IMG/VR virus record: IMGVR_UViG_3300021343_000001
Location: 1-57,543 of that record
Origin: a virus
Lineage: Duplodnaviria > Caudoviricetes
Direction: 5' to 3' (one strand)
DNA: 57,543 nucleotides
This document shows positions 9,304 through 52,051 of this stretch, piece after piece. The notes under the pieces are model-generated. The model had not been told where the DNA came from and searched no databases. It saw only the letters and a program-made list of their open reading frames with translations. Every line of letters begins with the position of its first letter. Within the stretch, counting starts at the first letter, position 1. The position numbers were made by a program, and so were the translations under genes.

Positions 9304-10014
9304 ATGACAGACGAGTTGATCGGAAGAATGAAAGAATGCAGGATCGTGGTTAACGGCGCAGAACTTCGAGGGTTCGCGTCAGGCAACCATCTGCACATTC
9401 CGCAGCGACGAGGCATCACGATCGGTGATCGCTACTTGCTGACCATTCCATTCGAGAGTGGTGACATCGCGGTTGAACTCGACCGCGAGCGAGAGGAGCC
9501 GAACGGGCGTCGGGGATGGACGTTCTATGAGGCATCGGGCGACGATGGCCGCGAGCCTACCGTGATCGGCTATCTCATGACGTGGCCTGGCATGATCGCT
9601 GATGTGCATCTGCTCGGTCAGCAATGCGCGCTTCCTGTCAACAAGCAACTCGCCATCGGCAACATCTGCGCGACGATGGTCGCGTTCGATATGATCGCTC
9701 GCGGCGAGATGCCGGTGCATATGGTCGCGGACTTCGAGCGACCGCCGCTTGGCTTGCGTATTCAGACATTCAACACGAGGCATTACGCACAGGCGAAGAT
9801 CGCGCAGCGCACCTTCGAGAGCAGTCGTCAAGATAAGTTCAGCCCTTCGACGATGCAAAGCGAGGTCGTCAGGGCGATGCATGATGCAGGGTTTAGCGTC
9901 GAACTCGGTGAGGTTGCCTATCAGGTCATGTGGAAAGCGAGCGGGGCCATGGGAGTTGTGCGCATCGAGATGAAGACCGAGCACGTTCCTGCGGGCGATG
10001 AGGTGACGATATGA
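9304..10014 (+). CDS. hypothetical protein
   Basis: AGGAGAGGAGAG-ATG start. Confidence 0.75.
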   Translation: MTDELIGRMKECRIVVNGAELRGFASGNHLHIPQRRGITIGDRYLLTIPFESGDIAVELDREREEPNGRRGWTFYEASGDDGREPTVIGYLMTWPGMIADVHLLGQQCALPVNKQLAIGNICATMVAFDMIARGEMPVHMVADFERPPLGLRIQTFNTRHYAQAKIAQRTFESSRQDKFSPSTMQSEVVRAMHDAGFSVELGEVAYQVMWKASGAMGVVRIEMKTEHVPAGDEVTI

Positions 10015-15294: not shown

Positions 15295-17634
15295 ATGAGT
15301 GAGGCAGGGCAAGAGAAGGCGTTCAGGTGGGATACGGCAGCGGGTATCCTCCAGAACTTCGTAACGAAGATGGGCACGCAGCGTGCGCGCAAGCAGTCGA
15401 ACATGGTGGGCGAGCGCGTGTGGTTCACGCCTGCCCAACTCGACATCCTCGCACAACATGGTCTCGTCAAGCGCATCAACGGCGAACTCCCTGCCGACGC
15501 AGGCAGCAAGCCTGAAGTCGTCGCGAGCAATGACGTGGCTCCTGCGCTCGAACAGCAACTGCGCGACCTGAAGGTCAGGCAGAAGTTTCGCAAGGCAGGC
15601 ACCGCCGCGCGCAGGCAAGGCGGCGCGGTTGTCTGGATCACATGCGAGGGTGGCGGCGAGACATACGAGCCTCTCGATCTCTCGACGATCAAGCGAGTGA
15701 CGAACCTCGTCGTGATCGACTCGAGCGAGTTGTCTGTCGAGACGTTTAAGCCAAAGAGTGACGATGATCGCGTGCAGATCACGGCAGGTTACTACGTCGA
15801 CGAGCCACGTCGTGCGGATTATCGCGAGCCACTCGCCTACCGATACACGCCATCGCAGGGCGGTAAGGAGCGCGTGATCCATGCGTCGCGCCTGATCAAG
15901 TTCTATGGCGATGACGTGCCCGATCGCTTGCGTGATCAGTACCAGGGATGGGGAGCGCCCGCTGTCGAGGCTGTGTGGGGCACGCTCTCGTCTGCGCTGC
16001 TCGCGCTCGACGGCGGCGCTGAGATCATCTCCGAGATGGGGCTCACCGTCTTTCAGATCGACAACCTGAAAGAGATCCAGTCAGGTGGCGAGCAAGGGGG
16101 ACTCGGCTCGTGGATGGCGCTCGTGGCAGAAGCGAAGAGCACGCTTCGATCACTCCTGCTCGCTCCGGGTCAGTCCGTCGAGCGTCTCGACATGTCGGTC
16201 GCGGGATGGTCCGAGGTGTACGATCGCATCGCGCAGGAGCTGTGCGCAGAGGCGGCGATGCCTGTCACGAAGTTGTATGGTCAGGCGCCGGGCGGGCTCT
16301 CGACTGACGACGCGAGCGCGTGGCGCAACTGGTCGGCGCGCGTGAGCGATTACCAGGACGATCAGCTGATCCCCGCCTACCTCTACCTGCTCGATGTGTT
16401 GTGTGCCGCGAAGGAGGGGCCGTGCAAGGGCAAGCGCCCCGAGACGCTCGATGTGGAACTCGCGCCATACGAGGTGCCCACCGAACTCGAAGAAGCGGAG
16501 ATCGCCAACAAGTGGGGCTCGACCGTCAACACGCTCGTGCAGATGGGCATCATCGACGAGGACGAAGCGCGCGAAACGATGCGCCGCGTCAAGGGGATGC
16601 GACTGCAAGAAGAGGAGGTCGAAGACGACACGACGGGGCAAGAGACGCTCGCGGCGCTCATGGCGCAGGCGGGTGAGCAAGGCGCGACGCAGGAGCCGGG
16701 CGCACCCGTCGGTGGTGACATCGAGAAGGCTCAAGACGCGGCGCTCAACGGCGCTCAGATCACGGCTGCTGCTAACATCGTGTCGAGCGTGTATCAGGGG
16801 CTCTACCCCGCAGAGCAGGGCGCACAGCTCCTCATGCTCGGCAACCCGACGCTGACGCCCGAGCGTGCACGCGCGATCGTCGGCGCAGGCAACCCGCAGC
16901 CTGTTGATCAAGAGCAGCCTGTCGAAGACGCAATGCGCGTCGATCCCTACGCAGGCATCGACGACCCCAAACTCCCTGAGAACGTCAAGGCGCTCTCTCC
17001 CCGCAAGCGTGCCGCATTCGTCGAGGCGTTCAACAGCGCATATGAGGAGAGCGATGGTGACGAGGGCAAGGCGTTCGCCACGGGCTACGCAGCAGCGAAG
17101 CGCGTCGACTCGATGCGTCATGACTACGGCGCGCGCTCGATGTGCTTCGCGCTGATGCCAAGCGAGGAGGTCGCAGCAGCGTTCGCGCCGTTGTCCGAGA
17201 TCCCACAAGACGAATTGCACGCGACCTTGCTCTACTTGCCCGACGTGGCAGACGAGGAGGTCGATCGCGTGCTCGAGACGGTCGAGGCGTTCGCGAGCAA
17301 GCAAGCGCCCATGAGGATGCGCACATCTGGACCTGGTACGTTCATCAACGGCGACGCCATCGCGCGGATCATGCTGCTCGAGGGGCTCGGGTTGACCGAG
17401 ATGCGCACCGACCTCAAACGCGAGGTCGAGGACATCGACGCGCTCGGTCTGCAAACTCACGACTTTACGGCGCACATGACGCTCGGGTATCATGACCGCG
17501 CCGACTACCCCGCTGAGTTGCTCGCGCAGATGGCGATGGTGGAAACGGACGAATGGAGCGCAGGCGAGATCATCGCGTGGCGCAATGGCGACATCGTGGC
17601 GCACATGCCACTGAAAGGAGGAGAGGAGAGATGA
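15295..17634 (+). CDS. portal protein (DUF1073-type) fused to ChaB-like and 2H-phosphoesterase (Acb1-like) domains
   Basis: Follows terL; IHASRLI.F.G, MPVTKLYGQAPGGL; C-terminal LP..VK.LS.R....F.EAFNSAYE (ChaB-like) and HATL...HMTL (2H). Confidence 0.85.
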   Translation: MSEAGQEKAFRWDTAAGILQNFVTKMGTQRARKQSNMVGERVWFTPAQLDILAQHGLVKRINGELPADAGSKPEVVASNDVAPALEQQLRDLKVRQKFRKAGTAARRQGGAVVWITCEGGGETYEPLDLSTIKRVTNLVVIDSSELSVETFKPKSDDDRVQITAGYYVDEPRRADYREPLAYRYTPSQGGKERVIHASRLIKFYGDDVPDRLRDQYQGWGAPAVEAVWGTLSSALLALDGGAEIISEMGLTVFQIDNLKEIQSGGEQGGLGSWMALVAEAKSTLRSLLLAPGQSVERLDMSVAGWSEVYDRIAQELCAEAAMPVTKLYGQAPGGLSTDDASAWRNWSARVSDYQDDQLIPAYLYLLDVLCAAKEGPCKGKRPETLDVELAPYEVPTELEEAEIANKWGSTVNTLVQMGIIDEDEARETMRRVKGMRLQEEEVEDDTTGQETLAALMAQAGEQGATQEPGAPVGGDIEKAQDAALNGAQITAAANIVSSVYQGLYPAEQGAQLLMLGNPTLTPERARAIVGAGNPQPVDQEQPVEDAMRVDPYAGIDDPKLPENVKALSPRKRAAFVEAFNSAYEESDGDEGKAFATGYAAAKRVDSMRHDYGARSMCFALMPSEEVAAAFAPLSEIPQDELHATLLYLPDVADEEVDRVLETVEAFASKQAPMRMRTSGPGTFINGDAIARIMLLEGLGLTEMRTDLKREVEDIDALGLQTHDFTAHMTLGYHDRADYPAELLAQMAMVETDEWSAGEIIAWRNGDIVAHMPLKGGEER

Positions 17635-19725: not shown

Positions 19726-20472
19726 ATGCCACGTCGCAAGCCTCCCGCGCGCGAACTGACGAAGACCATCGAGCAGCAGTTCGCGCGCGACATTCTCAAA
19801 CTCATGACGCCCGCTCGCCAGCTCATGCGCGCGATGAAGGCAGCCGAGCGCCAGCGCAACGACGCGCTCGGTGATTCGGTCCGCGACCTCTCGAGCGCCA
19901 TCACCTCGTGGTTGCAAGGCATGATCAGCGACAAGGCCGCGCGCGCTGTCGCAGAGCGTCAGATGAAGCGCGTGGAGCGGTTCGGTCGACTCGACTTCGA
20001 GCGGTGGTCCGAGATGGTCGGCATTGATCCGAGAGAGGCGAAGGGGCGCGCTGCTGTTGCCGTCGATGCGATGATGGAGAACGCCATCCTCGAGTCCATG
20101 GGTTACATCAAGGACATCCCGGTGCAACTCGCGCAGCAGGTGAGCGATGAGTTCTCCAACGCGCTCCTGCTCGGGCAACGCGGCAAGTCGCTCGCCACGA
20201 TCTTCGAGGAGCGCCTCGGTGTCGCGGAGTCGAGGGCGAAACTGATCGCGAGAGACCAGAGCACGAAGGCGCTCGGCAACATGCAGAAGGCACGTCAGCA
20301 AGCGCTTGGCGTGACGAGGTATGAGTGGGTAACGGCGGGTGATGAGAGGGTGCGACCCTCGCACGCAGCGCTGAATGGCAAGGTGTTCGACTGGAACGAC
20401 CCGCCGCCCGAGGGGCACCCAGGCGAACCCGTTGCTTGCAGGTGCGTGGCTGCTCCGATCCTCGACGACTAG
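19726..20472 (+). CDS. head morphogenesis protein (SPP1 gp7 / MuF family)
   Basis: RAKLIARDQ, Y.W.TAGDERVR.SH..LNG, HPG...CRC. Confidence 0.92.
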   Translation: MPRRKPPARELTKTIEQQFARDILKLMTPARQLMRAMKAAERQRNDALGDSVRDLSSAITSWLQGMISDKAARAVAERQMKRVERFGRLDFERWSEMVGIDPREAKGRAAVAVDAMMENAILESMGYIKDIPVQLAQQVSDEFSNALLLGQRGKSLATIFEERLGVAESRAKLIARDQSTKALGNMQKARQQALGVTRYEWVTAGDERVRPSHAALNGKVFDWNDPPPEGHPGEPVACRCVAAPILDD

Positions 20473-20972
20473 AGTACTGATGCTGCCAGCAGTCGGGCAA
20501 GTGCTGCGCCGCCGTGCGAGCCAGGCAAGACCCCTCTCCTCTTCCATGTGTCGATGCACGTGTGTGTGCATCCCATGAACTCCGATGCGTGCCAGCCGAG
20601 TTTGCGCTCGAGCTTCTGCACGGTCTCGAAAGGTTCGTCATCCGGTGACATGTCCTCGAAGTCGATCTCGCCCGCGATAAGTTCGTTGACGAGCGGCACC
20701 CAGCAGGATGTCTCGCCCATGCCTGCGCCCTCCCACTTCTTCCACCTCGTGGGCGCTTGCAATCGCACGTTCATCTCCTCGATCGTCGGATAGGGCGGCC
20801 CGTTCTTCCCGACCTTGCCAATGCGCTGCTCCCTGATTGCCATCTCCTCTTCGTTGAGGTCGAGCCCCTCCCTGAATGCTCGAAGTTGCTCGCGCGTTGG
20901 TGGACGCCAGGAGAATCCCCAAATCTCCTCTGCTCGAATGATGCAACTGCGGATGTTACGAATCACGCCCAT
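20469..20972 (-). CDS. putative HTH regulator (two HTH-like segments)
   Basis: PT.EQLRAFREGLDL.EEEMA...WKKWE; ASEFMG.....IDTWKRRG. Confidence 0.5.
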   Translation of the reverse strand: MGVIRNIRSCIIRAEEIWGFSWRPPTREQLRAFREGLDLNEEEMAIREQRIGKVGKNGPPYPTIEEMNVRLQAPTRWKKWEGAGMGETSCWVPLVNELIAGEIDFEDMSPDDEPFETVQKLERKLGWHASEFMGCTHTCIDTWKRRGVLPGSHGGAALARLLAASVL

Positions 20973-21349
20973 GACACTTCCTCCAGCCCTCGCGTCCTGT
21001 CGCTCTCGATGGTCGCCACGCATTGTGCGTGCGCTGCCTTGACGAATTGGCGCTCACGCGCAGCGCAGTCAGCGATCTCGTACCAGTGCGCACGCGTCTT
21101 GCCCCAGGTAGATTCCGCGAGCGCGACCGCCTCGCGCCTGCGACGGTCGAGGAAGTCGGCGTACTTGTCGAGCCCCACAACGCACCCGTCCGGGTCGTCG
21201 AAGATCGTCGTCGAGCACACGGCCATGATGCCGCCCCAGCCCTTGCGATAGTGGCGCTCGCGCGTTGCCTTGCTCGCAGGCTCTCCCATCGTCTGCACCC
21301 ACGCTTGCACGCGCTCCCTGATGCATGTCGTCAATTCAGCGTTTCTCAT
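20963..21349 (-). CDS. hypothetical early protein
   Basis: GGAGAGG RBS; coupled. Confidence 0.65.
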   Translation of the reverse strand: MRNAELTTCIRERVQAWVQTMGEPASKATRERHYRKGWGGIMAVCSTTIFDDPDGCVVGLDKYADFLDRRRREAVALAESTWGKTRAHWYEIADCAARERQFVKAAHAQCVATIESDRTRGLEEVSWA

Positions 21350-21570
21350 GTTGTCCTCTCCTTGTAGTACCTCGCGCGAGACCAGAATGCCTTGCCTTGC
21401 TTGTTGATGGCATCGACCTTCGCACGCTTGCGAGTGATGGTATCGTAAATCCTCATGCCCCCTCGAGCTTGCGCGACGCACTCCGAGAGGCTATCGCTGC
21501 TCATGACATCGACCCAGCGCCACGCATTGTTTAGCGCGCGGCGCTGGAGAATGAATCGTTCACCAGTCAT
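21346..21570 (-). CDS. small hypothetical early protein
   Basis: GGAG RBS; coupled. Confidence 0.55.
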   Translation of the reverse strand: MTGERFILQRRALNNAWRWVDVMSSDSLSECVAQARGGMRIYDTITRKRAKVDAINKQGKAFWSRARYYKERTT

Positions 21571-21925
21571 CGCGTCGGCTCTCCATCTCCTGCACGTATG
21601 CTTCGTGCGCGATCCTGTCGGCTTCGAGTTCCGCTCGGTGCCATTCGTTGAGGTTGCGATCATACTCTCGTGAGTCCTCGCGATCCTGCCTCGTCTGCTT
21701 GCCGTATCCCTGGCACGCTCCGCATTCGATCCCGTAGTCGTGCCTCGCGCCGCCGCACACCTCACATTCACGGATCTCGAACGCCTTGGTGATTTTCCTG
21801 ATGGCATGTGTCTTGATGGCGTCGTCTTTGACTTCCTCGAGCCATTCGAGCGCCTCGAGCGGGTTGCCTTGCTCGAACGCTTCGTCGAGCGCGTCTTTGA
21901 TGATGTCTTTGTCTTGCTTGCTCAT
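21560..21925 (-). CDS. acidic protein with CxxCxG zinc motifs
   Basis: CEVCGG...CGACQGYG; conserved 16-nt RBS element. Confidence 0.75.
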   Translation of the reverse strand: MSKQDKDIIKDALDEAFEQGNPLEALEWLEEVKDDAIKTHAIRKITKAFEIRECEVCGGARHDYGIECGACQGYGKQTRQDREDSREYDRNLNEWHRAELEADRIAHEAYVQEMESRRDDW

Positions 21926-21926
21926 G

Positions 21927-21942
21927 TCTCGCTCCTTCGAGT
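21927..21942 (-). promoter_or_regulatory. RBS hairpin ACTCGAAGGAGCGAGA, copy 1 of 4
   Basis: Identical at 22313-22328, 49100-49115 and 49455-49470. Confidence 0.85.
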
Positions 21943-21947
21943 GTGGT

Positions 21948-21986
21948 TGCACCTCAAAAGCCCGCCGGGCTTGCGCCGGGCGGGCT
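21948..21986 (-). terminator. conserved hairpin (terminator/attenuator-like), paralogous to 49130-49168
   Basis: AGCCCGCC...GCAA...GGCGGGCT-TTTGAGGTGCA. Confidence 0.6.
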
Positions 21987-22010
21987 AGTGCTGGTCTGGT
22001 CTGGTCTGGC

Positions 22011-22310
22011 TCACGCCGCCGTAAGGCAGTTGATGAAGTCTCGGTGCGCTTCGCTGTGTGCGTAGGCGCGAGCCATGGTGTAGAGGTCGCCCGCCTTGCC
22101 GGTGAAGGCGATGTCGGTGAAGACCGCCTCGAAGGTCTCGAGCGCCGTGTTGTAGTTGTCCTCGAGGCGGCTGTCGAAGTTGTCAGCGCAGTAAACGGCG
22201 GATGCCTCGCGAGCGGTGCGGAAATAGAGCCCTTCGTTCGCGCAATCGCGGAGGTAGGTGATTGCTTCGGTGCGGATTGCTTCGAGTGCTGCGGTAAGTT
22301 CGTTGTTCAT
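22011..22310 (-). CDS. small acidic early protein (first gene of leftward cassette 1)
   Basis: Conserved RBS element; promoter directly upstream. Confidence 0.75.
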   Translation of the reverse strand: MNNELTAALEAIRTEAITYLRDCANEGLYFRTAREASAVYCADNFDSRLEDNYNTALETFEAVFTDIAFTGKAGDLYTMARAYAHSEAHRDFINCLTAA

Positions 22311-22312
22311 TT

Positions 22313-22328
22313 TCTCGCTCCTTCGAGT
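22313..22328 (-). promoter_or_regulatory. RBS hairpin ACTCGAAGGAGCGAGA, copy 2
   Basis: 16/16 identity with the other copies. Confidence 0.85.
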
Positions 22329-22362
22329 TGTTGCGTGGGTCATTCCCTCGCTGACAAGAACC

Positions 22363-22402
22363 AACTTAGAGCACCTCCCCTCATGCGTCAATATAAAAAA
22401 CA
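22363..22402 (-). promoter_or_regulatory. sigma70-type leftward promoter with AT-rich upstream tract
   Basis: TTGACG-17nt-TAAGTT; TGTTTTTTATATTGACG nearly identical to 49526-49543. Confidence 0.65.
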
Positions 22403-22440
22403 TCAACCCATGATAAAAAATATCGACCGATCATGAGGAG

Positions 22441-25964: not shown

Positions 25965-25996
25965 ACGCACCTTCCATACGAGATAGGAGAGAAGAG

Positions 25997-26512
25997 ATGA
26001 CGAACCGACGAGGAAAGAGCAAGGGTGAAACGCAGGTCGAGCTGGCAGACGGGAGCCCGCAGAGCAACGATGATGTGCTCGTGTGGTCGAGCCTGTCTTA
26101 CCCCTACACCTTGCGTGTGATCACCTCGCGTTACAACCCGAAGAAGATCGGGGAGTACGCAGACGGCAACTGGGACAAGGCAGACGCCGTGCTCAAGCCC
26201 GGCCCAAACCGCGTACCCAAAGAGATCTGGGATGCGCACAAGGACAACCCCAACGTGGTCAAGCGCCTCGATCTGAACGTGCTCAGTGTCGGCAAGGAAC
26301 CAAAGCGAGAGATCTCACGTCAGCTCGCAGCGTACCAGGCGGGCAACGCCATGAGCGCCGTCGAGGTGATCGACATCCACAGCGAAGTGACGCACGCACC
26401 GGAGACACGCTTCGAGCAACAGGTGCGTCAGCAGGGCAACATCCCGATCGTCGGCAAGGCGTCCAACGCGGCAACCGCTGCGCTCGGCGCTCCCATCGTC
26501 GCAGGAGGCTGA
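25997..26512 (+). CDS. hypothetical head-associated protein
   Basis: Position; L.PG.N.V....W motif. Confidence 0.7.
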   Translation: MTNRRGKSKGETQVELADGSPQSNDDVLVWSSLSYPYTLRVITSRYNPKKIGEYADGNWDKADAVLKPGPNRVPKEIWDAHKDNPNVVKRLDLNVLSVGKEPKREISRQLAAYQAGNAMSAVEVIDIHSEVTHAPETRFEQQVRQQGNIPIVGKASNAATAALGAPIVAGG

Positions 26513-44521: not shown

Positions 44522-46012
44522 ATGAGCCTTGCAGACAAGGTGCGCGGGTGGCTCGCAGAGCACGACCCGACGCTCGAGAAGTACGCAGACAAGAGCAGCG
44601 CCGATGTAGCGCGCATGATCGCAGACGATGGGGTGATCCCTCACGCGAGCGTGCAAAGCGCCGCGCGAGCGTATCGAAAGATGCTCGCTGGCGAGATTCC
44701 CGCACCAGTTCAGGACGATGGCGAGGATCGCGAAGGGGTCGAGGAGGTCGACGCCGACGCGCCAGACACCGGCGATACCGTCGCGCTCGACTGGGACAAC
44801 AACAGGTATCTGTTCTCGTTTGTCGAGAAGGGCAGCGCGACGCCATGGGATGCCGACTTCAAAGAGATCAGCGAGTGGGCTTGGTGGTACACACACCAGG
44901 GCGAGAACCGCACCGCTCGAGACTGCTGCAACCTCGCTTACGAGGAGCACGGGCGCACGATCACAGAGGCGTGGTTCAGGCGCGCGATGCGCATCCTCGG
45001 GCTGCTCAAATCCTCGCCACCGCTCGCGCCTCACGAACTCGAGAAGTATCCTCGAGCCGAGCAGCAAGAGCGCATCATCTTCCAGCGCAGGCAGGCGCGC
45101 GCGCAACGGGCAATCACCTCGAGCGAGCGAAGGCAGTGGAGGCGCATCGCGGAGCAAGCGCAACGCGACCTCGAAGACCAAGACCGCGCGATCGAGCTGC
45201 TCGCCGGACTCGTCAACAGCGCCCCAGTGCGAGAGATCGCCTACACCTACCCCGAGAAGACCTCGCCCTACCTCGCCGTCGCGGGTGCGTTCGATGTCCA
45301 CATCGGCAAACGCACGGACACGGGCGGGCTCGACGCGACGATCGAAGACTTCCTCACGGCTGGCGAGAAGCTCGCGCGGCGCATCGCGATGTGCGGCACA
45401 CCCGAGAAGATCCTCGTCGCGTTCGGCGGCGACTACTTTCATGTTGACACGAAGGAAGGCACGACCACGGCGGGCACGAGACAGGACGTTGACGCGAGCA
45501 CCGCGCGCATCATCAACTCTGGCACGCACGCTGCCATCGAATACATCGAGATCATGCGCGAGGTCGCACCGGTCGAGGTGATCGTGATCGCTGGCAACCA
45601 TGACGCGACCCTGACGGCAGGGCTCGCGACCGCGCTGGAGATCCGCTACGCGCACATCAACGCGGTGGAGTTCACCTTCTGCGCAGACACGATGCAATAC
45701 GCGCGGTTTGGCGACTGCCTGCTCGCCTTCGAGCACGGCGACGGCCCGAAGCAAAAAGACCTCGCGAACCTCATGTCACACGACGCGAGGCAGCGAGGCT
45801 GGTTGTGGAAGAAAGGGTTTGCGTTCGTCGGACACCTGCATCACGAGCACGCTTACGACATCGGCGGCGTGACGGTGCTCCAGTGCCCCTCGCTCGCGCA
45901 CGCGGACGCCTGGCACGCAAAGAAGGGATTTCGCATGTCGACGCCCTCGCACGCGGCTTACCTGTTCGATCGCGAGGAGGGGCTGATAGGCGCGCTACGC
46001 GCTACGCTGTAG
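44522..46012 (+). CDS. N-terminal helical domain plus metallophosphoesterase
   Basis: DVHIG, GGD.FH.D, GNHD, HGD, GHLHH. Confidence 0.85.
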   Translation: MSLADKVRGWLAEHDPTLEKYADKSSADVARMIADDGVIPHASVQSAARAYRKMLAGEIPAPVQDDGEDREGVEEVDADAPDTGDTVALDWDNNRYLFSFVEKGSATPWDADFKEISEWAWWYTHQGENRTARDCCNLAYEEHGRTITEAWFRRAMRILGLLKSSPPLAPHELEKYPRAEQQERIIFQRRQARAQRAITSSERRQWRRIAEQAQRDLEDQDRAIELLAGLVNSAPVREIAYTYPEKTSPYLAVAGAFDVHIGKRTDTGGLDATIEDFLTAGEKLARRIAMCGTPEKILVAFGGDYFHVDTKEGTTTAGTRQDVDASTARIINSGTHAAIEYIEIMREVAPVEVIVIAGNHDATLTAGLATALEIRYAHINAVEFTFCADTMQYARFGDCLLAFEHGDGPKQKDLANLMSHDARQRGWLWKKGFAFVGHLHHEHAYDIGGVTVLQCPSLAHADAWHAKKGFRMSTPSHAAYLFDREEGLIGALRATL

Positions 46013-46474
46013 CCACGGCGCGAGGCATTCGTCTGTGAGGTAGGGGCAGTTTACTCGCGCTTGGTGACCCGAGTTCGAGCGATCACTCATCCCCAGGTTG
46101 TCGTAAGGCAGAATGCTGTTTGCAAGCAAAGGCTCGAAGTATCGTGCGAACCAGAGGAACCTGCCTGCACCAAGCCCAATGGTAGCAAGAAATCCCGAGC
46201 CTCCGATCAGCCCAAGCCACCAAGCCACACTCACCGCCTGATCGACGCTCGAGCCATCCTCCCCGATCGACAGCACACACCATTCGACCGCATCCCCCAG
46301 CGTGAGCAGGTCATCCCACGCGAGCAGCACGTCGAGCCGACGTTTTGCCAGGTCGAGCGCGCTCGCCTGCAAATGCTCAGGCAACCTCGCCCACGCCTTG
46401 ACCACGAGCCCGATCGCCTCGGGCGTCCTGCGCGCGTGCTCCACGATCTCTCGAAACGCTCCGTAATCCATCAC
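45995..46474 (-). CDS. hypothetical protein
   Basis: GAGGAGG RBS; GTGA coupling. Confidence 0.55.
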   Translation of the reverse strand: MMDYGAFREIVEHARRTPEAIGLVVKAWARLPEHLQASALDLAKRRLDVLLAWDDLLTLGDAVEWCVLSIGEDGSSVDQAVSVAWWLGLIGGSGFLATIGLGAGRFLWFARYFEPLLANSILPYDNLGMSDRSNSGHQARVNCPYLTDECLAPWLQRSA

Positions 46475-46839
46475 TCCTCCTCACCATCATTGATGATCTT
46501 GACGAATCGTTCACCGTCAATCCAGACTTCCTCCCATCCGCCAAGATAAATGTGCTGCTCGAGGTCAAACTTGTCACCCATGGCTTCCTCTGTCATCGGG
46601 TAGAGTCGATCCCACGTCGTCTGAAAGGCGACCGGCAAGTCCTTTCTGAACGCTGCCAACCCTTCTTCGAGGAACATGGGGTAATGACGCACATGCGCCG
46701 TCCCGATAAACTCCACCATCGCTACAGCAACCAGCGCTTCTCTCGGAGTTTTGAACTTAACCCATCTCACATCAAGGCCCTCACCGATCACGAACGCAAT
46801 GACCCATGGACGTTCACCCTTATCGCCAAGATAAATCAC
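46471..46839 (-). CDS. hypothetical protein
   Basis: GGAGG RBS; coupled. Confidence 0.6.
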   Translation of the reverse strand: MIYLGDKGERPWVIAFVIGEGLDVRWVKFKTPREALVAVAMVEFIGTAHVRHYPMFLEEGLAAFRKDLPVAFQTTWDRLYPMTEEAMGDKFDLEQHIYLGGWEEVWIDGERFVKIINDGEEE

Positions 46840-47333
46840 TTGTCACCCTCCTTCCTCTCACCGTCGATCCAAGCCTGAACGCTCTTGCGGTCCATGTCGT
46901 GAGGCAACCACTTTGCGCACACCTCGAGCAGCGCGAGCGCATCCTCGAGAGCCTTGCGTGTGTCGCCCTCTGCTGGACAGTAGTCGCGCGTTTGCTGACG
47001 CTCGATCGCAGACGCGACGAGTTGGCGCACGCCGAACATCGGATCACTCAGGTCAACCTGGGCATCTTCGATCAGCCCGCGAATGCCGATGTAGGTTTCG
47101 CACGATGCGAGGCTGATCACCATGCACCGATGCTTCACGAGCAACGCGAAGCGCTCCCCCTTGTCGGTGCACGTCTTGATCTCCTCTCGGATTTGCCCGA
47201 TGCGCTCCGCGAGGTCGACCGCCTTCGCAGACCATTCCTCTTGTGTGGCATCCATGGCTTGCGCCATCATCATCGGCACGATCGCCTCGACGCGCACGTC
47301 CACGATCACCTTGTCCTGCTTCTCTTCTGTCAT
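46836..47333 (-). CDS. hypothetical protein
   Basis: AGGAGAGGAGAG-ATG. Confidence 0.7.
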   Translation of the reverse strand: MTEEKQDKVIVDVRVEAIVPMMMAQAMDATQEEWSAKAVDLAERIGQIREEIKTCTDKGERFALLVKHRCMVISLASCETYIGIRGLIEDAQVDLSDPMFGVRQLVASAIERQQTRDYCPAEGDTRKALEDALALLEVCAKWLPHDMDRKSVQAWIDGERKEGDK

Positions 47334-47419
47334 CTCTCCTCTCCTGTTTGACGGTCCTTTCATCAATGCTACAATGAGCGCGACCCAACTCCTCGGGTCG
47401 CGTCACCTCTCCTCGACGC

Positions 47420-47461
47420 GCGAGCCCCGCCAACCTCTACTGGCGGGGCTCGCTTTGTTTT
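47420..47461 (+). terminator. intrinsic terminator on the + strand
   Basis: 13-bp stem GCGAGCCCCGCCA/TGGCGGGGCTCGC followed by TTTGTTTT. Confidence 0.7.
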
Positions 47462-48154
47462 AACCTTCTGCGAACTCGATGATCCACGGGCCTTCCTCGA
47501 AATCACCGAGCGACGCGAGCTTGCCGAGCACCCACCCGAGCGCGCTGCCTGAGAGCTGCTCGGGGTTTTTCACCTTGCCCTTCTCACACAACTTCACGAG
47601 AAACTTCTCCTTGACCTTGCCATCGACGTGCTTGAGCAGCTCGCGTTCAACCTCTGCGAGCGTAGCCTCTTCGGGTCCAGGCGCGGGCTTGCTCGGCTTC
47701 TGCCTCGTCTTCTCACGCCTCGGTGGTCGCTGAATCGAGTCTTGCTCGGGGTCATCGCCCATCGGCAACATGAAAGCCTTCAGGAGCGCCGTGCGCAGCG
47801 CGCTCGTGGTTGCCTTGGCGACTGCCTTGTCTCCTCGGTCCTGCCCCTGCCCAACCCACGAAAAGGAGCGTTCCTCGCCAGTCACACCGTCGATGAAGGT
47901 GACGCACATCTCGAGTGTCACCGTGTCACCGTGTCACCTTTGGCTTCGTGCTGCGTCACACTCGGCAACATGATCACCTGCCTCGACGCGAGCGGTGCGC
48001 GAATGGCATCGAACACCGCATCGATGCTCGCATACTTCATGCGGATGTGATCGACGCTCTTGTCTGTCGCGACTTTCTCCACCTCGAGCATGACCTCTGC
48101 GATCATGCGTGCGAGGCGGCGTGTGGGTTGCTCTTGCTTTGCTTCTTCTGTCAT
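47460..48154 (-). pseudogene. erf: ERF-family ssDNA annealing protein, frameshifted by an extra 8-bp repeat unit
   Basis: KYASIDAV..AIR..L in the 5' half; G.GQD.GDKA..KA.T.A.R..L...F.LP.GDDP in the 3' half; halves rejoin with 2 instead of 3 GGTGACAC units. Confidence 0.85.
47915..47938. repeat. (GTGTCACC)x3 tandem repeat
   Basis: Read directly from the sequence. Confidence 0.95.
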
Positions 48155-48459
48155 TCTCCAACTCCATCTCTAAGGATCAGCACCTCTCGCGGTGCGTCGA
48201 AATGCATCGAGGACACTGCGCCCTCGCTCCTGTACGTGATCCGCGCGCTCACATGCGCGACGTGCTCACCGAGCCTGATCGCCATGTGCGGCGACTGCCT
48301 CGACTCGGTGACAGCGCGAACCGCCCCGCTCTCGTCGAGTGCCGCGAATCTCATTCGGTTGCGGCGCGCGTTCACCTCGATCATCTCGACGCGCACGCTC
48401 TCGCCATCACACGAGAGAGTCACGCCCTCTCCCTGGCTCACTGTCAGTTTCAATCCCAT
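48151..48459 (-). CDS. CsrA/RsmA-like protein, apparently a tandem single-chain form
   Basis: LKLTVSQGEGVTL resembles LILTR..GE...I; FDAPREVLILR resembles I.AP.EV.I.R. Confidence 0.6.
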   Translation of the reverse strand: MGLKLTVSQGEGVTLSCDGESVRVEMIEVNARRNRMRFAALDESGAVRAVTESRQSPHMAIRLGEHVAHVSARITYRSEGAVSSMHFDAPREVLILRDGVGE

Positions 48460-49097
48460 CACTTCACCTTCTTGCGCCAGACGCGCTTGCCTGCCCTGAA
48501 CGCGAACCCTCGACATCGATCCTCATCGTCGACGAGATGCACGCCATGTGGTTTCTCGAACTCGCCAGCAAACTCGACACCTTCGACCGTCCAGCGCTTG
48601 CGCTCGTGCAACACAATGTCGCCTCGCATGAGGTCTGCGACCGGGACGTGATCGACGCACGTCGCGTTCAAGCAGAAGGCGTCACGTCGATACATCGACC
48701 CGCACTCATGGCAGGTGTCATGCGTCGGCGCTTGCTCGGGGATGTCGTCGAACTCGAACGGTCGGCGCGCGTCGAGCGAGACGACGTTGCGCTCTTGCTC
48801 TGCGCGATCCCTCGCCTCCTCCCTGATGTCTGCGGGCAGCCTCGCGAGGATCTGTTGCCACGCTTGCGCGATCTCCTCGTCCGTCGCGAGCTTGGGCAGG
48901 TCGTGCCCCGCCTCGCTCAAGATCGACTTGAACGCGGTCACGTCCATGCAGTCGCCCACGAAGATCTGCGGGATGTCTGCACACATCTTCTCGAGCACCT
49001 CGAGTGAGGTGTGCGCGCTGTAATGCCTGGTGATGGTGAGGATGGTTGGTGTGATAGGGTCGGGATATGCGATCCCTTCGTGCATGTACTTCTTCAT
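48459..49097 (-). CDS. early protein with zinc ribbon
   Basis: CHECG...C.NATC; conserved RBS element. Confidence 0.7.
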   Translation of the reverse strand: MKKYMHEGIAYPDPITPTILTITRHYSAHTSLEVLEKMCADIPQIFVGDCMDVTAFKSILSEAGHDLPKLATDEEIAQAWQQILARLPADIREEARDRAEQERNVVSLDARRPFEFDDIPEQAPTHDTCHECGSMYRRDAFCLNATCVDHVPVADLMRGDIVLHERKRWTVEGVEFAGEFEKPHGVHLVDDEDRCRGFAFRAGKRVWRKKVK

Positions 49098-49099
49098 TG

Positions 49100-49115
49100 T
49101 CTCGCTCCTTCGAGT
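49100..49115 (-). promoter_or_regulatory. RBS hairpin ACTCGAAGGAGCGAGA, copy 3
   Basis: 16/16 identity with the other copies. Confidence 0.85.
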
Positions 49116-49129
49116 TGTTGTTTCGTGCC

Positions 49130-49168
49130 TGCACCTCGAAAGCCCGCCGAGCTTGCTCCGGGCGGGCT
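49130..49168 (-). terminator. conserved hairpin, paralogous to 21948-21986
   Basis: AGCCCGCC...GCAAGC...GGCGGGCT-TTCGAGGTGCA. Confidence 0.55.
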
Positions 49169-49186
49169 GGTGTGAGTGAGGGTGCG

Positions 49187-49453
49187 TTAGCCTTCCTGAT
49201 TCGCTTCCTCTTCGAGTTGCTCCTTCGCGAGCCTGAAGCCTTGCTCGATGTCCCACTCGTCTGCGAAGTCTGGAGCCTCCCACTCTTCGATGCCCGCCAT
49301 GATGGTGGCGGCGTCCGTGGTGTCAATCTCGCTCATGTACTCGAGCGCCTCAGTAGCATCGTTGCTCCCGCAGGCCGTGAAGTAGTCATAAAAGAACGCC
49401 TCCATGGCGCGTGCTGCGGTGGGGTAGAGGATTCCGGCGTGTTGGCAGTTCAT
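49187..49453 (-). CDS. small, highly acidic early protein (first gene of leftward cassette 2)
   Basis: 88 aa, D/E-rich; conserved RBS element. Confidence 0.75.
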   Translation of the reverse strand: MNCQHAGILYPTAARAMEAFFYDYFTACGSNDATEALEYMSEIDTTDAATIMAGIEEWEAPDFADEWDIEQGFRLAKEQLEEEANQEG

Positions 49454-49454
49454 A

Positions 49455-49470
49455 TCTCGCTCCTTCGAGT
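49455..49470 (-). promoter_or_regulatory. RBS hairpin ACTCGAAGGAGCGAGA, copy 4
   Basis: 16/16 identity with the other copies. Confidence 0.85.
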
Positions 49471-49502
49471 GGTGACGCTCATGCGTCGTTGATGTGCTTC
49501 AA

Positions 49503-49576
49503 TCTTTAACCACCCTTTCACCACACGTCAATATAAAAAAACACGACTTGACGTTTTTTATCATCGCGCTCATAGT
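49503..49576. promoter_or_regulatory. back-to-back divergent promoters
   Basis: Leftward TTGACG-17-TAAAGA; rightward TTGACG(49548)-17-CATAGT; A/T tracts. Confidence 0.6.
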
Positions 49577-49604
49577 CATCTGGACTTCAACGAAAGGAGA
49601 GACC

Positions 49605-49928
49605 ATGGCGAAGCAAGACAAATCAGAACTGAGGCAGACCATCAGCGACGCGCTCGAGCGCGCGAGGCTCGAGGAGCTGCGTTGCAGCGCGAGGAGTTTC
49701 GATCGCGCGACCGGGATTCCGATCGGCACCGCCTACATGATCACCAAACGCGCGGGTAACATCACGCTCGACAACCTCCACGCCATCGCGCAGGCGTTCG
49801 GGCTCGAGCACGCGGGCATCCTGATCGACCGCGCGCTCGCAGGCGCACCGCTCGTCGAGAACGGCGCGCCGATCCACGACGCGCTCGTGCAAGAGCTTAT
49901 CGACCGCTACAGCAAGGATGAAGCATGA
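49605..49928 (+). CDS. XRE/Cro-C1 HTH regulator
   Basis: S.RSF.RATGI...T.Y.I......NITLDNL..IA.AFG. Confidence 0.8.
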   Translation: MAKQDKSELRQTISDALERARLEELRCSARSFDRATGIPIGTAYMITKRAGNITLDNLHAIAQAFGLEHAGILIDRALAGAPLVENGAPIHDALVQELIDRYSKDEA

Positions 49929-50125
49929 AACACTACACACTCGAACACCGCCGCGCGCCATACACTTGGATCGCCATCGCATCAGACGACAACCTCGAGG
50001 TGATCCTCGACTACGCGAAAGAGCACGGCGACCTCGACGACCTGCGCGTGATGAACATCCGCGCGAAACGACTGACACCCGTGCGCGAGCTGATCGCGCG
50101 CAGCACACGCAAGGAGAAACCATGA
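49925..50125 (+). CDS. hypothetical protein
   Basis: ATGA coupling on both sides. Confidence 0.6.
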   Translation: MKHYTLEHRRAPYTWIAIASDDNLEVILDYAKEHGDLDDLRVMNIRAKRLTPVRELIARSTRKEKP

Positions 50126-51078
50126 CTCAGTTAACCGCGCCCTTCGTTTATTTCGGCGGGAAGCGCCTCATCGCCCCGGTGGTGTGGGAGAGGCTTGGCA
50201 ATGTCAACAACTACATCGAACCTTTCGCGGGCAGCGCAGCGGTGTTGCTCGCGAGACCTCACACCTTGCGCCCCTACCAAATGGAACTGTTGAATGATCT
50301 CGACGGTGAGATCTGCAATTTCTGGCGCAGCATCAAGACTGATCCCGAGGGTGTGATCGATGGAGCCGATCACATCTGCTCGGAACTCGACATGCACGCC
50401 AGATCGCACCGCATTGCGGACACGCGCGAGGAGATCGTTGAACGCCTGCGCATGGATATGGACTTTTGCGACCCCGTGCGCGCAGGGTGGTGGCTCTATG
50501 GCGTGTGCCTCGCGATCGGCTCTGACTTCGAGAACGCTCGCCATTCATTGCCCAGCTATGGCAATAAGGGGCGTGGCATTCATCGTCACACGCCAGATGC
50601 GCGCTATTCTCGCGACACCATCGCGCACCACCTGCAAGGTGTGATCGATCGTATGCGCGCGGTGCGCATCGCGTGTGGATCGTGGGAGCGGGTGCTGACT
50701 GATTCGTTGATGTTTCCTTGCGCAACGTACAAAAGCCACAGACCTCCATGCGGCGTGTTCCTCGATCCCCCATACCTCGAAGGAAATCAGCAATATGCGG
50801 CAGGCGGCACGGGCACCTCGCTCGCTCATGACGTGCTCGAATGGTGCATCGAGCGCGGCGATACCCCGCAAATCCGCATCGCCTTGTGTGGCTACACAGG
50901 ACACTATGACGCGCTCGCAGAGCATGGCTGGGAGTGTATCAACTGGAAAGCGAACGGTGGGTACGCGAGCACCGCAAACCGCAAGGGCAGCAACGCCACA
51001 GCATACGAAAACAGCAAACGTGAGGTGATCTGGTTCTCACCTCACTGCCTTGGCAAAGCGCAGACCACACTTTTCTAG
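50122..51078 (+). CDS. DNA N6-adenine methyltransferase (Dam/D12 class)
   Basis: F.YFGGK, YIEPFAGS.AV, LNDLD, FLDPPY. Confidence 0.92.
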   Translation: MTQLTAPFVYFGGKRLIAPVVWERLGNVNNYIEPFAGSAAVLLARPHTLRPYQMELLNDLDGEICNFWRSIKTDPEGVIDGADHICSELDMHARSHRIADTREEIVERLRMDMDFCDPVRAGWWLYGVCLAIGSDFENARHSLPSYGNKGRGIHRHTPDARYSRDTIAHHLQGVIDRMRAVRIACGSWERVLTDSLMFPCATYKSHRPPCGVFLDPPYLEGNQQYAAGGTGTSLAHDVLEWCIERGDTPQIRIALCGYTGHYDALAEHGWECINWKANGGYASTANRKGSNATAYENSKREVIWFSPHCLGKAQTTLF

Positions 51079-51163
51079 GAGAGGATAGATGGTCGCCTGG
51101 TTCAACCGCATCGCGAGGCGCAAGATCCTCGCTCAACCCGGCTCGCTTCTTTGAGGAGATAAC

Positions 51164-51616
51164 ATGGCAATCACACTTGGATTCGATCGCGTGCTCGCGC
51201 TCCCTGACGACAGGTTCGCGAGAGGCTGGCAGCGCGAATGCGCGCGCACACGATGCGGCAACGCGATCATCAACGGCATCAACGATCAGGACTTCCCCGA
51301 CGAGGAGATAAACGAATGGTGGTCGAATGTGTTCTTTGACCTCGCGATGTATGTTCGTCGCGTGCCTGAAACCTGCGATCCCTTCTACAGCAAGTCAGGG
51401 CTCACGACGCCGGTCAACGTCGTGGCGTGCTCGACGCTCACACTCGCGCAGCCTCCAGACGCGCTCGTGCGCCGCACGCTGACATTGTTCAATCTCGGGC
51501 GCGCGCTGCGTAACCTGACCTCGGACGATCGAACGGACTGGCTCTTTGCGACCGAGCACGGCAACGCCGTCGATGTCGTGCAACATGCTTTCAAACAACT
51601 GCCCGACAGGAGATAA
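51164..51616 (+). CDS. hypothetical protein
   Basis: GAGGAG RBS. Confidence 0.65.
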   Translation: MAITLGFDRVLALPDDRFARGWQRECARTRCGNAIINGINDQDFPDEEINEWWSNVFFDLAMYVRRVPETCDPFYSKSGLTTPVNVVACSTLTLAQPPDALVRRTLTLFNLGRALRNLTSDDRTDWLFATEHGNAVDVVQHAFKQLPDRR

Positions 51617-51617
51617 C

Positions 51618-51941
51618 ATGAAGGAACTCGACATCATCATCAGCAACCTCACAAACCAGGGCTACTCCTGTTGCATGGTCAGCGACGGCAAAGGGTACGA
51701 GGAAAACCAGCGACGACACAGGATGCGCTTGAATGGTTCGCGAGGGCCGATCTACTCGATCGACCACGGCGGCGCGCGTTATCCAACCTTCTACATCAGC
51801 GCTCGTGATGCCGCATTCGCGCTCGGCTCGTTTGGCGTTTATGCCAAACGCATCTCATGGAGCAACGTCGAGAGCGTCGTCGCGGAGGCGTTCGACGAGA
51901 AGGCAGCTCGCCGTCGCGCCATCGGAACCGCATTGCGCTGA
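51618..51941 (+). CDS. hypothetical protein
   Basis: AGGAG RBS before MKELDIII. Confidence 0.65.
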   Translation: MKELDIIISNLTNQGYSCCMVSDGKGYEENQRRHRMRLNGSRGPIYSIDHGGARYPTFYISARDAAFALGSFGVYAKRISWSNVESVVAEAFDEKAARRRAIGTALR

Positions 51942-51976
51942 AACAACAAGAGCCCGATGCGTTGCGCATCGGGCTC
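51941..51976 (-). terminator. intrinsic terminator after the tRNA
   Basis: 12-bp perfect stem GAGCCCGATGCG/CGCATCGGGCTC followed by TTGTTGTTT on the - strand. Confidence 0.75.
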
Positions 51977-51978
51977 CA

Positions 51979-52051
51979 TGGAGAATCGGGGACTCGAACC
52001 CCGGACCTACGCAGTGCGAGTGCGTCGCTCTCCCATCTGAGCTAATCCCCC
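51979..52051 (-). tRNA. tRNA-Ala(CGC), CCA not encoded
   Basis: 73-nt cloverleaf GGGGGAT-TA-GCTC..GAGC-G-ACGCA-CTCGCAC-TGCGT-AGGTC-CGGGG-TTCGAGT-CCCCG-ATTCTCC-A; G3:U70 and A73. Confidence 0.95.

Follow-up and report, generated by a model that had tools for sequence, protein, structure and literature searches.

The stretch of DNA considered here (the window) is the whole of the IMG/VR virus record IMGVR_UViG_3300021343_000001, a Caudoviricetes genome of 57,543 nucleotides (nt) with a G+C content of 60.9% and a direct terminal repeat of 127 nt (positions 1-127 are identical to 57417-57543). Its genes run mostly rightward and are interrupted by two leftward blocks, at ~20.5-22.4 kb and ~46.0-49.5 kb. 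In both of these leftward operons a 16-nt sequence, ACTCGAAGGAGCGAGA (the 16-mer), stands immediately before the start codons of the first two cistrons, where it is predicted to place the Shine-Dalgarno (SD) sequence in the loop of a small hairpin. The third gene of the operon at 46-49.5 kb encodes a protein of 102 residues, P0001, whose termini weakly resemble those of the RNA-binding regulator CsrA. The 16-mer is a real, non-random start module, which is comparable to the start-associated sequences (SAS) of Cluster K mycobacteriophages and is best read as an element that acts in the mRNA.

A search of the window that allowed as many as two mismatches recovered the 16-mer four times, always as an exact copy and always on the - strand, against a chance expectation of 0.10; four matches were reached in none of 100 shuffles. 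The 14-nt core of the sequence has no copy with a single mismatch, and the other 29 matches of this core, at two or three mismatches (33 matches in all), are unrelated sites. Each copy is followed by an ATG, after a gap of 1 nt at ATG 49453 and ATG 21925 and of 2 nt at ATG 49097 and ATG 22310, so that GGAG ends 6-7 nt before the start codon. Both the exact matches and the ATG positions agree with the preliminary description of this DNA, which had reported four perfect copies on the - strand at 1-2 nt upstream of start codons. A reading in which the 16-mer pairs with a trans-encoded antisense RNA was ruled out by the finding of no other complementary copy at two mismatches or fewer.

Taken by itself, the 16-mer folds into a stem of four pairs (CUCG with CGAG) that closes the hexaloop AAGGAG (in dot-bracket form.((((......)))). 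at -3.9 kcal/mol). This hairpin is part of the minimum-energy fold at three of the four sites when contexts of 56 nt are folded, and at two of the four in contexts of 81-106 nt; in the longer contexts one more site has it in the centroid structure only, and at the last it is displaced by pairing to an upstream CUUUCGAG. The fold with the SD in the hexaloop, as first proposed from inspection, is thus the one predicted for the 16-mer by itself and in the majority of its contexts. The window, taken over both strands, has 28 hairpins in which an NNGGAN hexaloop is closed by at least four pairs, and the four copies of the 16-mer are the only repeated ones among them. The loop sequence itself, AAGGAG, is a common SD in the phage.

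The 16-mer belongs to a regulatory kit that is present in both operons (Table 1). A 15-nt promoter block, TTTTTTATATTGACG, occurs in the window as two exact copies, with one unrelated match at three mismatches besides. A simple consensus promoter scan called neither of the two sites, and promoter function is therefore something that we only infer. Behind each first cistron lies a copy of a second conserved block of ~39 nt, which would act as a terminator and consists of a G+C-rich hairpin, a short U tract and the tail GAGGUGCA. Conservation between the two operons is punctuated: the 16-mer, the 15-nt promoter block and the ~39-nt block are common to both, while the leader between promoter block and 16-mer has diverged, the spacer between terminator-like block and 16-mer carries a 9-nt indel, and the spacers and coding regions are unrelated. 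Such a pattern speaks for function, or for block-wise copying, and makes a recent wholesale duplication less likely. In both copies the terminator-like stem is immediately followed by a conserved CUUUYGAG, in which the single C/U difference keeps the pair (G-C or G-U). The sequence CUUUCGAG in the terminator-like tail is predicted to be able to pair with CUCGAAGG of the 16-mer, and CUUUYGAG may possibly serve as an anti-SD at the two copies that lie within the operons; the predictions have low ensemble frequencies and are a lead.

Several other features accompany these blocks. In both promoter regions (49526-49600 and 22386-22440) TTGACG motifs stand back to back with T tracts alongside (TTTTTTAT), and a promoter-like site on the + strand, TTGACG-17-CATAGT, would serve a divergent gene for a 107-residue protein with weak helix-turn-helix (HTH) matches. 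The back-to-back motifs could be shared operators for a Cro/C1-type regulator, and the 107-residue protein is a likely transcriptional regulator of the shared promoter region. Between the stop codon of gene 1a and the terminator-like hairpin, at ~21990-22012 (-), there is a run of the pentanucleotide CCAGA in ~3.5 copies. A role of the 16-mer as a nut site for antitermination was ruled out, as two of the copies lie after the terminator-like blocks and the first cistrons encode acidic proteins.

Table 1. Repeated elements and genes of the two leftward operons, with the copies of a second start module (positions in the window)
Feature	Position	Strand	Description
16-mer copy 1	49455..49470	-	1 nt before ATG 49453; promoter-proximal leader, left operon 46-49.5 kb
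16-mer copy 2	49100..49115	-	2 nt before ATG 49097; 14 nt after conserved terminator-like block
16-mer copy 3	22313..22328	-	2 nt before ATG 22310; promoter-proximal leader, left operon 20.5-22.4 kb
16-mer copy 4	21927..21942	-	1 nt before ATG 21925; 5 nt after conserved terminator-like block
Promoter block TTTTTTATATTGACG	49526..49540	-	T-rich tract, -35-like TTGACG, then 17 nt, -10-like TAAAGA; putative promoter
Promoter block, second exact copy	22386..22400	-	TTGACG, 17 nt, then TAAGTT; putative promoter
Terminator-like hairpin AGCCCGCC..GGCGGGCT, tail TTCGAGGTGCA	49130..49168	-	Conserved block; putative terminator
Terminator-like hairpin, second copy, tail TTTGAGGTGCA	21948..21986	-	Putative terminator
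Gene 2a	49187..49453	-	88-residue acidic ORFan, first cistron
Gene 2b	48459..49097	-	212-residue ORFan; stop and next ATG share one base (TGATG)
P0001 gene	48151..48459	-	102 residues, all-beta, weakly CsrA-like termini; start coupled to 2b; stop overlaps next ATG (ATGA)
Gene 1a	22011..22310	-	99-residue ORFan, first cistron of the other left operon
Gene 1b	21560..21925	-	121-residue ORFan, CxxC..CxxC motif
Divergent 107-residue protein	49605..49928	+	Weak Cro/C1-type HTH matches, below cut-off
15-mer AGGAGAGGAGAGATG, exact copies	3385-3399, 9292-9306, 17619-17633, 47331-47345 (-), 56480-56494		
15-mer AGGAGAGGAGAGATG, one-mismatch copies	25985-25999, 51077-51091		

The four proteins served by the 16-mer (88, 212, 99 and 121 residues) gave no family matches, except for two weak matches of the 121-residue protein to PHROGs that have no assigned function; no similarity was detected among the four, and they are not paralogous. 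Further along, most cistrons overlap the preceding one by a few bases (TGATG between 2b and the P0001 gene, ATGA between the P0001 gene and the next, then GTGA). The exception is ATG 47333, which comes after another hairpin and has a different repeated start module.

For P0001, a full HMMER pass over 1,835,955,588 representatives at E <= 0.001 returned only the protein itself and P0002, a protein of 100 residues with 43% identity (E 9.2e-15). Against the Pfam CsrA family (PF02599, gathering cut-off 27 bits) P0001 gives an E value of 0.0012, with its best stretch, residues 85-100, on profile positions 32-47, and P0002 gives 0.033. A profile of the two proteins, searched against PDB sequences, matched only RsmF and RsmN (E 1 and 1.3), each in two collinear pieces, one with residues 3-19 on strands 1-2 and the other with residues 80-99 on strands 4-5. 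In a BLASTP alignment with E. coli CsrA, DAPREVLILRD falls on NAPKEVSVHRE and R97 on R44. P0001 residues L5 and R97 align with CsrA L4 and R44, and both are kept in P0002; these alignments are weak and serve as a pointer. L4 in strand 1 and R44 in strand 5 are described as critical RNA-binding residues of CsrA (PMC7652899, in excerpt), and the weak signals in P0001 are collinear and lie at the strands that bind RNA in CsrA. When compared with a reference alignment of nine CsrA sequences (that of E. coli and eight from phages; members of 52-78 residues), P0001 matches 7 of the 11 invariant columns, as counted by eye. Each half of P0001 aligns collinearly with most of CsrA, at hhalign probabilities of only 0.7% and 5.4%. 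The CsrA-like motifs that had been noticed at the N and C termini are therefore matched by similarity at just those termini, but at a level below threshold. The further suggestion of two fused CsrA-like units is compatible with the length of the protein; however, neither half matches Pfam CsrA when searched separately, no internal repeat was detected, and the halves show no similarity to each other. The stretch that is best conserved with P0002, residues 56-80 (~48220-48294, -), reads SPH..H..HVSARIxYRxEG and has three invariant His; nothing in CsrA corresponds to this segment, which may bind a metal or a ligand.

An AlphaFold2 model of P0001, made with the two-sequence alignment, is a compact all-beta monomer of nine strands and no helix (predicted local distance difference test, pLDDT, 85.4; predicted template-modelling score, pTM, 0.75). 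Chains of the CsrA family have about 55-75 residues, five strands and a C-terminal helix, and P0001, with its 102 residues and the modelled nine strands without a helix, lies outside this definition. The preliminary description had named structure prediction against the CsrA dimer as a check, and the compact nine-strand monomer lends the CsrA reading no support. A VIA-align comparison with 48,161 chains gave generic beta-sandwiches, the best of which (a fusexin domain, Z 8.3) is within the background quoted for the tool. In the BFVD, unannotated viral proteins of 96 and 102 residues share the fold of P0001 (template-modelling scores 0.63-0.70; E 1.5e-4 and 4.6e-4); entries A0A6G5YD98, A0A088F6N9 and A0A2I7QSD7 are among the BFVD matches. 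Neighbours in the ESM Atlas are CsrA-labelled clusters of ~88-100 residues, several of them mostly viral, with scores of 0.84 for the whole protein and 0.75 for its N-terminal half, values that are leads only by the tool's calibration. The compact, confident monomer model would fit a self-contained fold and settles nothing on dimerisation. Descent of P0001 from CsrA is possible, with a likelihood that we would set somewhat under an even chance; its kinship to CsrA is unproven, and the CsrA reading is only a lead.

Taken together, these observations suggest how the two operons may be controlled. A single kit would be used twice, in which promoter block, ~30-nt leader, 16-mer and cistron 1 are followed by the terminator-like hairpin, a second 16-mer and cistron 2. 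The 16-mer would be the ribosome loading site for the first two cistrons of both leftward operons, with a 6-nt SD offered in the hexaloop. Because the 16-mer is invariant at all 16 positions, of which only 6 could pair with 16S rRNA, amid flanks that have diverged, the hairpin is most likely also an operator. It could be read by a trans-acting RNA-binding factor that recognises the GGA hexaloop, and this factor would throttle the two operons jointly once an early burst is over. Among phage-encoded proteins the coupled P0001 would be the best candidate, with a host CsrA-type protein as the alternative. The P0001 gene is translationally coupled to 2b, which the 16-mer serves, and consequently a feedback loop is wired in principle. 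Both the binding and the direction of control are what we infer from this arrangement; the feedback circuit is plausible but unproven, and the view that the start module doubles as the operator of a GGA-hairpin-reading factor, with P0001 as leading candidate, is offered tentatively, as one whose chances do not quite reach even. The feedback circuit had been suggested in the preliminary description: the start-site element, the RNA-level reading and the coupling of P0001 to 2b hold, whereas P0001 falls short of the Pfam and profile thresholds for CsrA.

Several findings weigh against this reading. The stem has only four pairs, and 6 of 200 shuffles of the 16-mer are equally stable. Predicted SD accessibility at the four sites is ordinary (0.66, 0.65, 0.64 and 0.37, which rank 13, 15, 17 and 35 among 52 starts). 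Compared by eye with the CsrA consensus obtained by SELEX, RUACARGGAUGU (PMC7652899, in excerpt), the 16-mer agrees at 6 of 12 positions (U, A, R and GGA), and the ACA and GU parts are absent. On the side of the protein, P0001 scores 19.2 bits against Pfam CsrA, with no single stretch passing, and P0002 scores 14.6 bits, both below the cut-off. An hhalign comparison of the P0001/P0002 alignment with the nine CsrA sequences gave a probability of 2.4%, over residues 80-100 only and with a shallow profile of two sequences. Foldseek found no match of the model in the PDB at E <= 0.001, and no CsrA chain is present among the 50 VIA-align matches or the Foldseek matches listed; a compact monomer is poorly suited to matching a CsrA chain, which comes from an intertwined dimer, and the absence of such a chain points neither way. 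The four copies of the 16-mer are identical and so show no covariation among them. The studied region is present in four seawater metagenome runs (DNA), two of which are possibly the source of the record DNA, and over 45900-50200 they have 0 differing letters, leaving no microdiversity to use.

No related phage or related element was found in the searches made, and this too counts on the opposing side. Relatives of P0001 were absent from a tblastn search against phages at E 0.01 and at E 10 and from IMG/VR, and a word-indexed protein search returned P0001 and P0002 only; scans of genomes and metagenomes with the P0001/P0002 alignment gave no match, PHROGs and NCBIfam gave nothing useful, and a PF02599 scan of the record itself gave no match. 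Genes 2b and 1b have no IMG/VR relatives, the DNA of 47000-52000 had no match among phages, and six loci with distant ERF genes held no P0001-like open reading frame (ORF; best E 1.6). Three IMG/VR loci that contain the 16-mer were rejected, as all lie in coding-looking sequence with no ATG behind. The 16-mer followed by an ATG was met at 11 metagenome and 5 genome loci, about the chance number as estimated by hand, and none of these is related to the window.

A second repeated start module adds to the case on that side and brings in the rival that survives best. This ribosome-binding-site 15-mer, AGGAGAGGAGAGATG, has five exact and two one-mismatch copies, on both strands and at unrelated genes, against an expectation of 0.00; no inverted repeat that could form a hairpin is seen in it, and ATG 47333, a later cistron of the 46-49.5 kb operon, is served by the 15-mer and not by the 16-mer. 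At its copies stop and start codons often overlap as ATGA. The phage can thus have long invariant start modules without a hairpin-reading factor; they are a habit of this genome, which weakens the case for a hairpin-reading protein from invariance alone. In the same way, the 16-mer might be a plain optimised start module that has no dedicated binder, a strong SD insulated in a small loop, which recombination or gene conversion would have copied between the operons along with the promoter and terminator blocks. The common SD and the ordinary accessibility of its sites would fit such a module, and the promoter and terminator blocks are duplicated too, so the whole regulatory kit would have been copied. 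Against this, the spacers between the blocks have diverged and contain indels, yet 16 of 16 positions are identical in the four copies; 10 of the 16 are unable to pair with 16S rRNA, and no decayed copies are found. We regard a plain module as possible, though clearly short of an even chance.

The evidence on P0001 bears on a more specific alternative, the circuit of the preliminary description in full, in which P0001 has the CsrA fold, possibly as two fused units, and binds all four hairpins to shut off the early cistrons and, via 2b, itself. The low Pfam E values, the restriction of PDB profile matches to RsmF and RsmN, the conserved pairs R97/R44 and L5/L4, the collinearity of each half with most of CsrA, the viral CsrA-labelled Atlas clusters, the BFVD proteins of like fold and the coupling to 2b all point that way, but every sequence signal is sub-threshold (E ~1 in the PDB search), the halves neither match Pfam CsrA nor repeat each other, the model is a nine-strand monomer without the CsrA helix, the HVSARIxYRxEG segment has no counterpart, and the structure matches listed include no CsrA chain, the last pointing neither way, given the intertwined dimer. 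This circuit is unlikely. In a variant, P0001 and P0002 would represent a new derivative of the CsrA fold (~100 residues), all-beta and made of a single chain, the L5 and R97 strands of which form one RNA-binding face (a one-site pseudo-dimer); it would exert a shut-off like that of phage T4 RegA through the GGA-hexaloop SD hairpins at the first two cistrons of both operons and would limit itself via 2b. A pseudo-dimer of this kind would be compatible with the data, but we hold the variant as a whole to be quite unlikely; if it were true, start-associated sequences would gain a cognate protein.

Host CsrA or RsmA might instead bind the hairpins and so tie the early operons to host physiology, in which case P0001 would be unrelated to their control. 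The hairpin is shaped like a high-affinity CsrA/RsmE site over an SD, and the nearest isolated phages, although very distant (capsid identity at most 28.5%, helicase 36%), are mostly phages of Pseudomonadota. However, this phage comes from seawater metagenomes, and to our knowledge many marine lineages lack CsrA; in addition, each start has one GGA hairpin, as opposed to the two or more sites of many CsrA targets, and half of the SELEX consensus is unmatched. Control by host CsrA is very improbable. Least probable of all, and close to negligible, is a DNA operator in which the imperfect palindrome CTCG-N6-CGAG is bound by a protein that recognises DNA, for instance the divergent HTH protein: the dyad symmetry, the HTH gene beside one operon and the preference of the SAS authors for DNA-binding proteins at extended SAS repeats (PMC3203893, in excerpt) are set against four copies in one orientation at a fixed 1-2 nt from the ATG, two of them inside operons and far from any promoter, with arms of only 4 bp.

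The wider window encodes a portal protein, a major capsid protein, a DnaB-type helicase, a D12-class DNA methyltransferase and an ERF-type recombinase. The leftward operon at 20469-22406 (-) lies between head-morphogenesis genes (the portal region, to ~20.5 kb) and the genes that lead to cement and capsid (from 22.5 kb on), and resembles a moron cassette that has a promoter and a terminator to itself. The portal protein (15295-17634, +; Phage_portal_3, E 6.8e-52) has a C-terminal 2'-5' RNA ligase or LigT-like 2H phosphoesterase domain (residues 636-759, E 4.9e-10), an unusual fusion. The recombinase is divided between two ORFs (47918-48154 and 47460-47921, -) that match the N- and C-terminal parts of ERF profiles. 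The break falls in an 8-nt unit that is present in three perfect tandem copies (47915-47938; GTGTCACC, + strand), and the second ORF begins at a GTGA overlap; the split could reflect a switch prone to slippage, a site of frameshifting or a gene that is broken, and two runs have the identical three-copy form within one contig. A tRNA-Ala(CGC) at 51979-52051 (-) was called by both ARAGORN and Rfam, and a tRNA-like Rfam match at 3253-3368 (+; 116 nt, 39.9 bits) that ARAGORN did not call may be an interrupted or aberrant tRNA. These two are the sole matches of the Rfam scan, which found no Csr/Rsm sponge RNA, and none of the runs listed as containing the studied region is an RNA sequencing run.

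The interest of the locus lies mainly in its small size, as one 16-nt RNA and one small protein suffice for a bench test. If P0001 binds, a monomeric branch would be added to the CsrA world, and the phage would be using CsrA-type recognition on its own early mRNAs instead of on targets in the host. Should it not bind, the locus still documents the modular reuse of kits of promoter, terminator and start module before unrelated genes.

Two phage systems invite comparison with the proposed circuit. T4 RegA shuts off several early cistrons by binding to their translation initiation regions, and it limits its own synthesis. The circuit considered here would be like it in early-mRNA repression and self-limitation; it would be unlike it in that the fold of RegA is unrelated and its targets are loosely defined AU-rich start regions, which are not known to share a single invariant hairpin. 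Aca repressors exert operon-encoded negative feedback on strongly expressed leading early genes, using an HTH that acts on promoter DNA. The preliminary description drew this analogy, which holds for feedback within the same operon and differs in level: Aca control is exerted at the DNA, while the 16-mer is placed for control at the RNA.

The site itself is closest in shape to those of CsrA and RsmE. In the available excerpts of PMC7652899, high-affinity sites present GGA within an ANGGAN hexaloop that is closed by a stem of at most four pairs, and the 16-mer, with GGA in such a hexaloop on a four-pair stem over the SD, matches them, as had been proposed at the outset. CsrA autoregulates, like the proposed loop. 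In contrast, no protein that falls within the CsrA family definition was found in the phage, and a single site is present per target here, whereas many CsrA targets have two or more (PMC7652899, in excerpt). Phage-encoded CsrA homologues are themselves known: excerpts report them in 30 of 2517 phages (PMC7366521), in the Bcep22-like phage JC1 (gp47, 64 residues; PMC9144972) and in P. aeruginosa phage Bci (123 residues; PMC7546807). In this analysis 88 of 50,697 phage records bore csrA, and the proteins listed are 48-100% identical to E. coli CsrA. Several P. aeruginosa phages encode CsrA-domain proteins of 123 residues (coding sequence 372 nt), with an N-terminal CsrA domain and a ~70-residue C-terminal extension. 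P0001, as a small, phage-borne and putatively RNA-binding regulator, is like all these; they are clear family members, discussed in those excerpts as acting on the host, and P0001 is not detectably one. No report was found in the literature searches made here of a phage CsrA-type protein that acts on dedicated hairpins in the phage's own mRNAs, and the csrA-tldR loci in the excerpts of PMC13418256 are host loci, which are not relevant here. A comparable operon context is seen in Vibrio phage VvAW1, where a canonical csrA in an early-left operon has an exonuclease (recombination) gene next to it and a Cro/C1-type regulator running divergently; the 40 annotated starts of VvAW1 show no repeated GGA-loop start hairpin, which, as a single example, speaks against the proposed circuit.

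The nearest parallel to the 16-mer as a start module is provided by the SAS of Cluster K mycobacteriophages. These 13-bp sequences, GGGATAGGAGCCC, have been known since 2011; they have an AGGAG core and conserved, non-pairing flanks with outer symmetry, they lie 3-7 bp before the start codons of non-structural genes in 11-19 copies per genome, and the excerpts of the source give no binder or mechanism (PMC3203893). Its authors also argue from flank positions that are unable to pair with 16S rRNA (PMC3203893, in excerpt). Both SAS and the 16-mer are short asymmetric repeats that stand a few nt before starts, with an AGGAG core and conserved flanks unable to pair with 16S rRNA; their outer parts are symmetric (GGG..CCC in SAS, CTCG..CGAG in the 16-mer), and both occur in a single orientation at non-structural genes of unrelated families. 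The two differ in sequence, length and number, with 16 nt and four copies here, so that the 16-mer is an analogue that belongs to another repeat family; in host, Mycobacterium as opposed to the host of a marine phage; in the absence here of extended-SAS repeats; and in placement, as the 16-mer marks only the first two cistrons of two operons that have promoter and terminator blocks in common. The window thus presents a compact SAS-like case in an unrelated marine phage: the site occurs in four identical copies over two operons, it is predicted to form a hairpin, and a coupled gene supplies a candidate protein.

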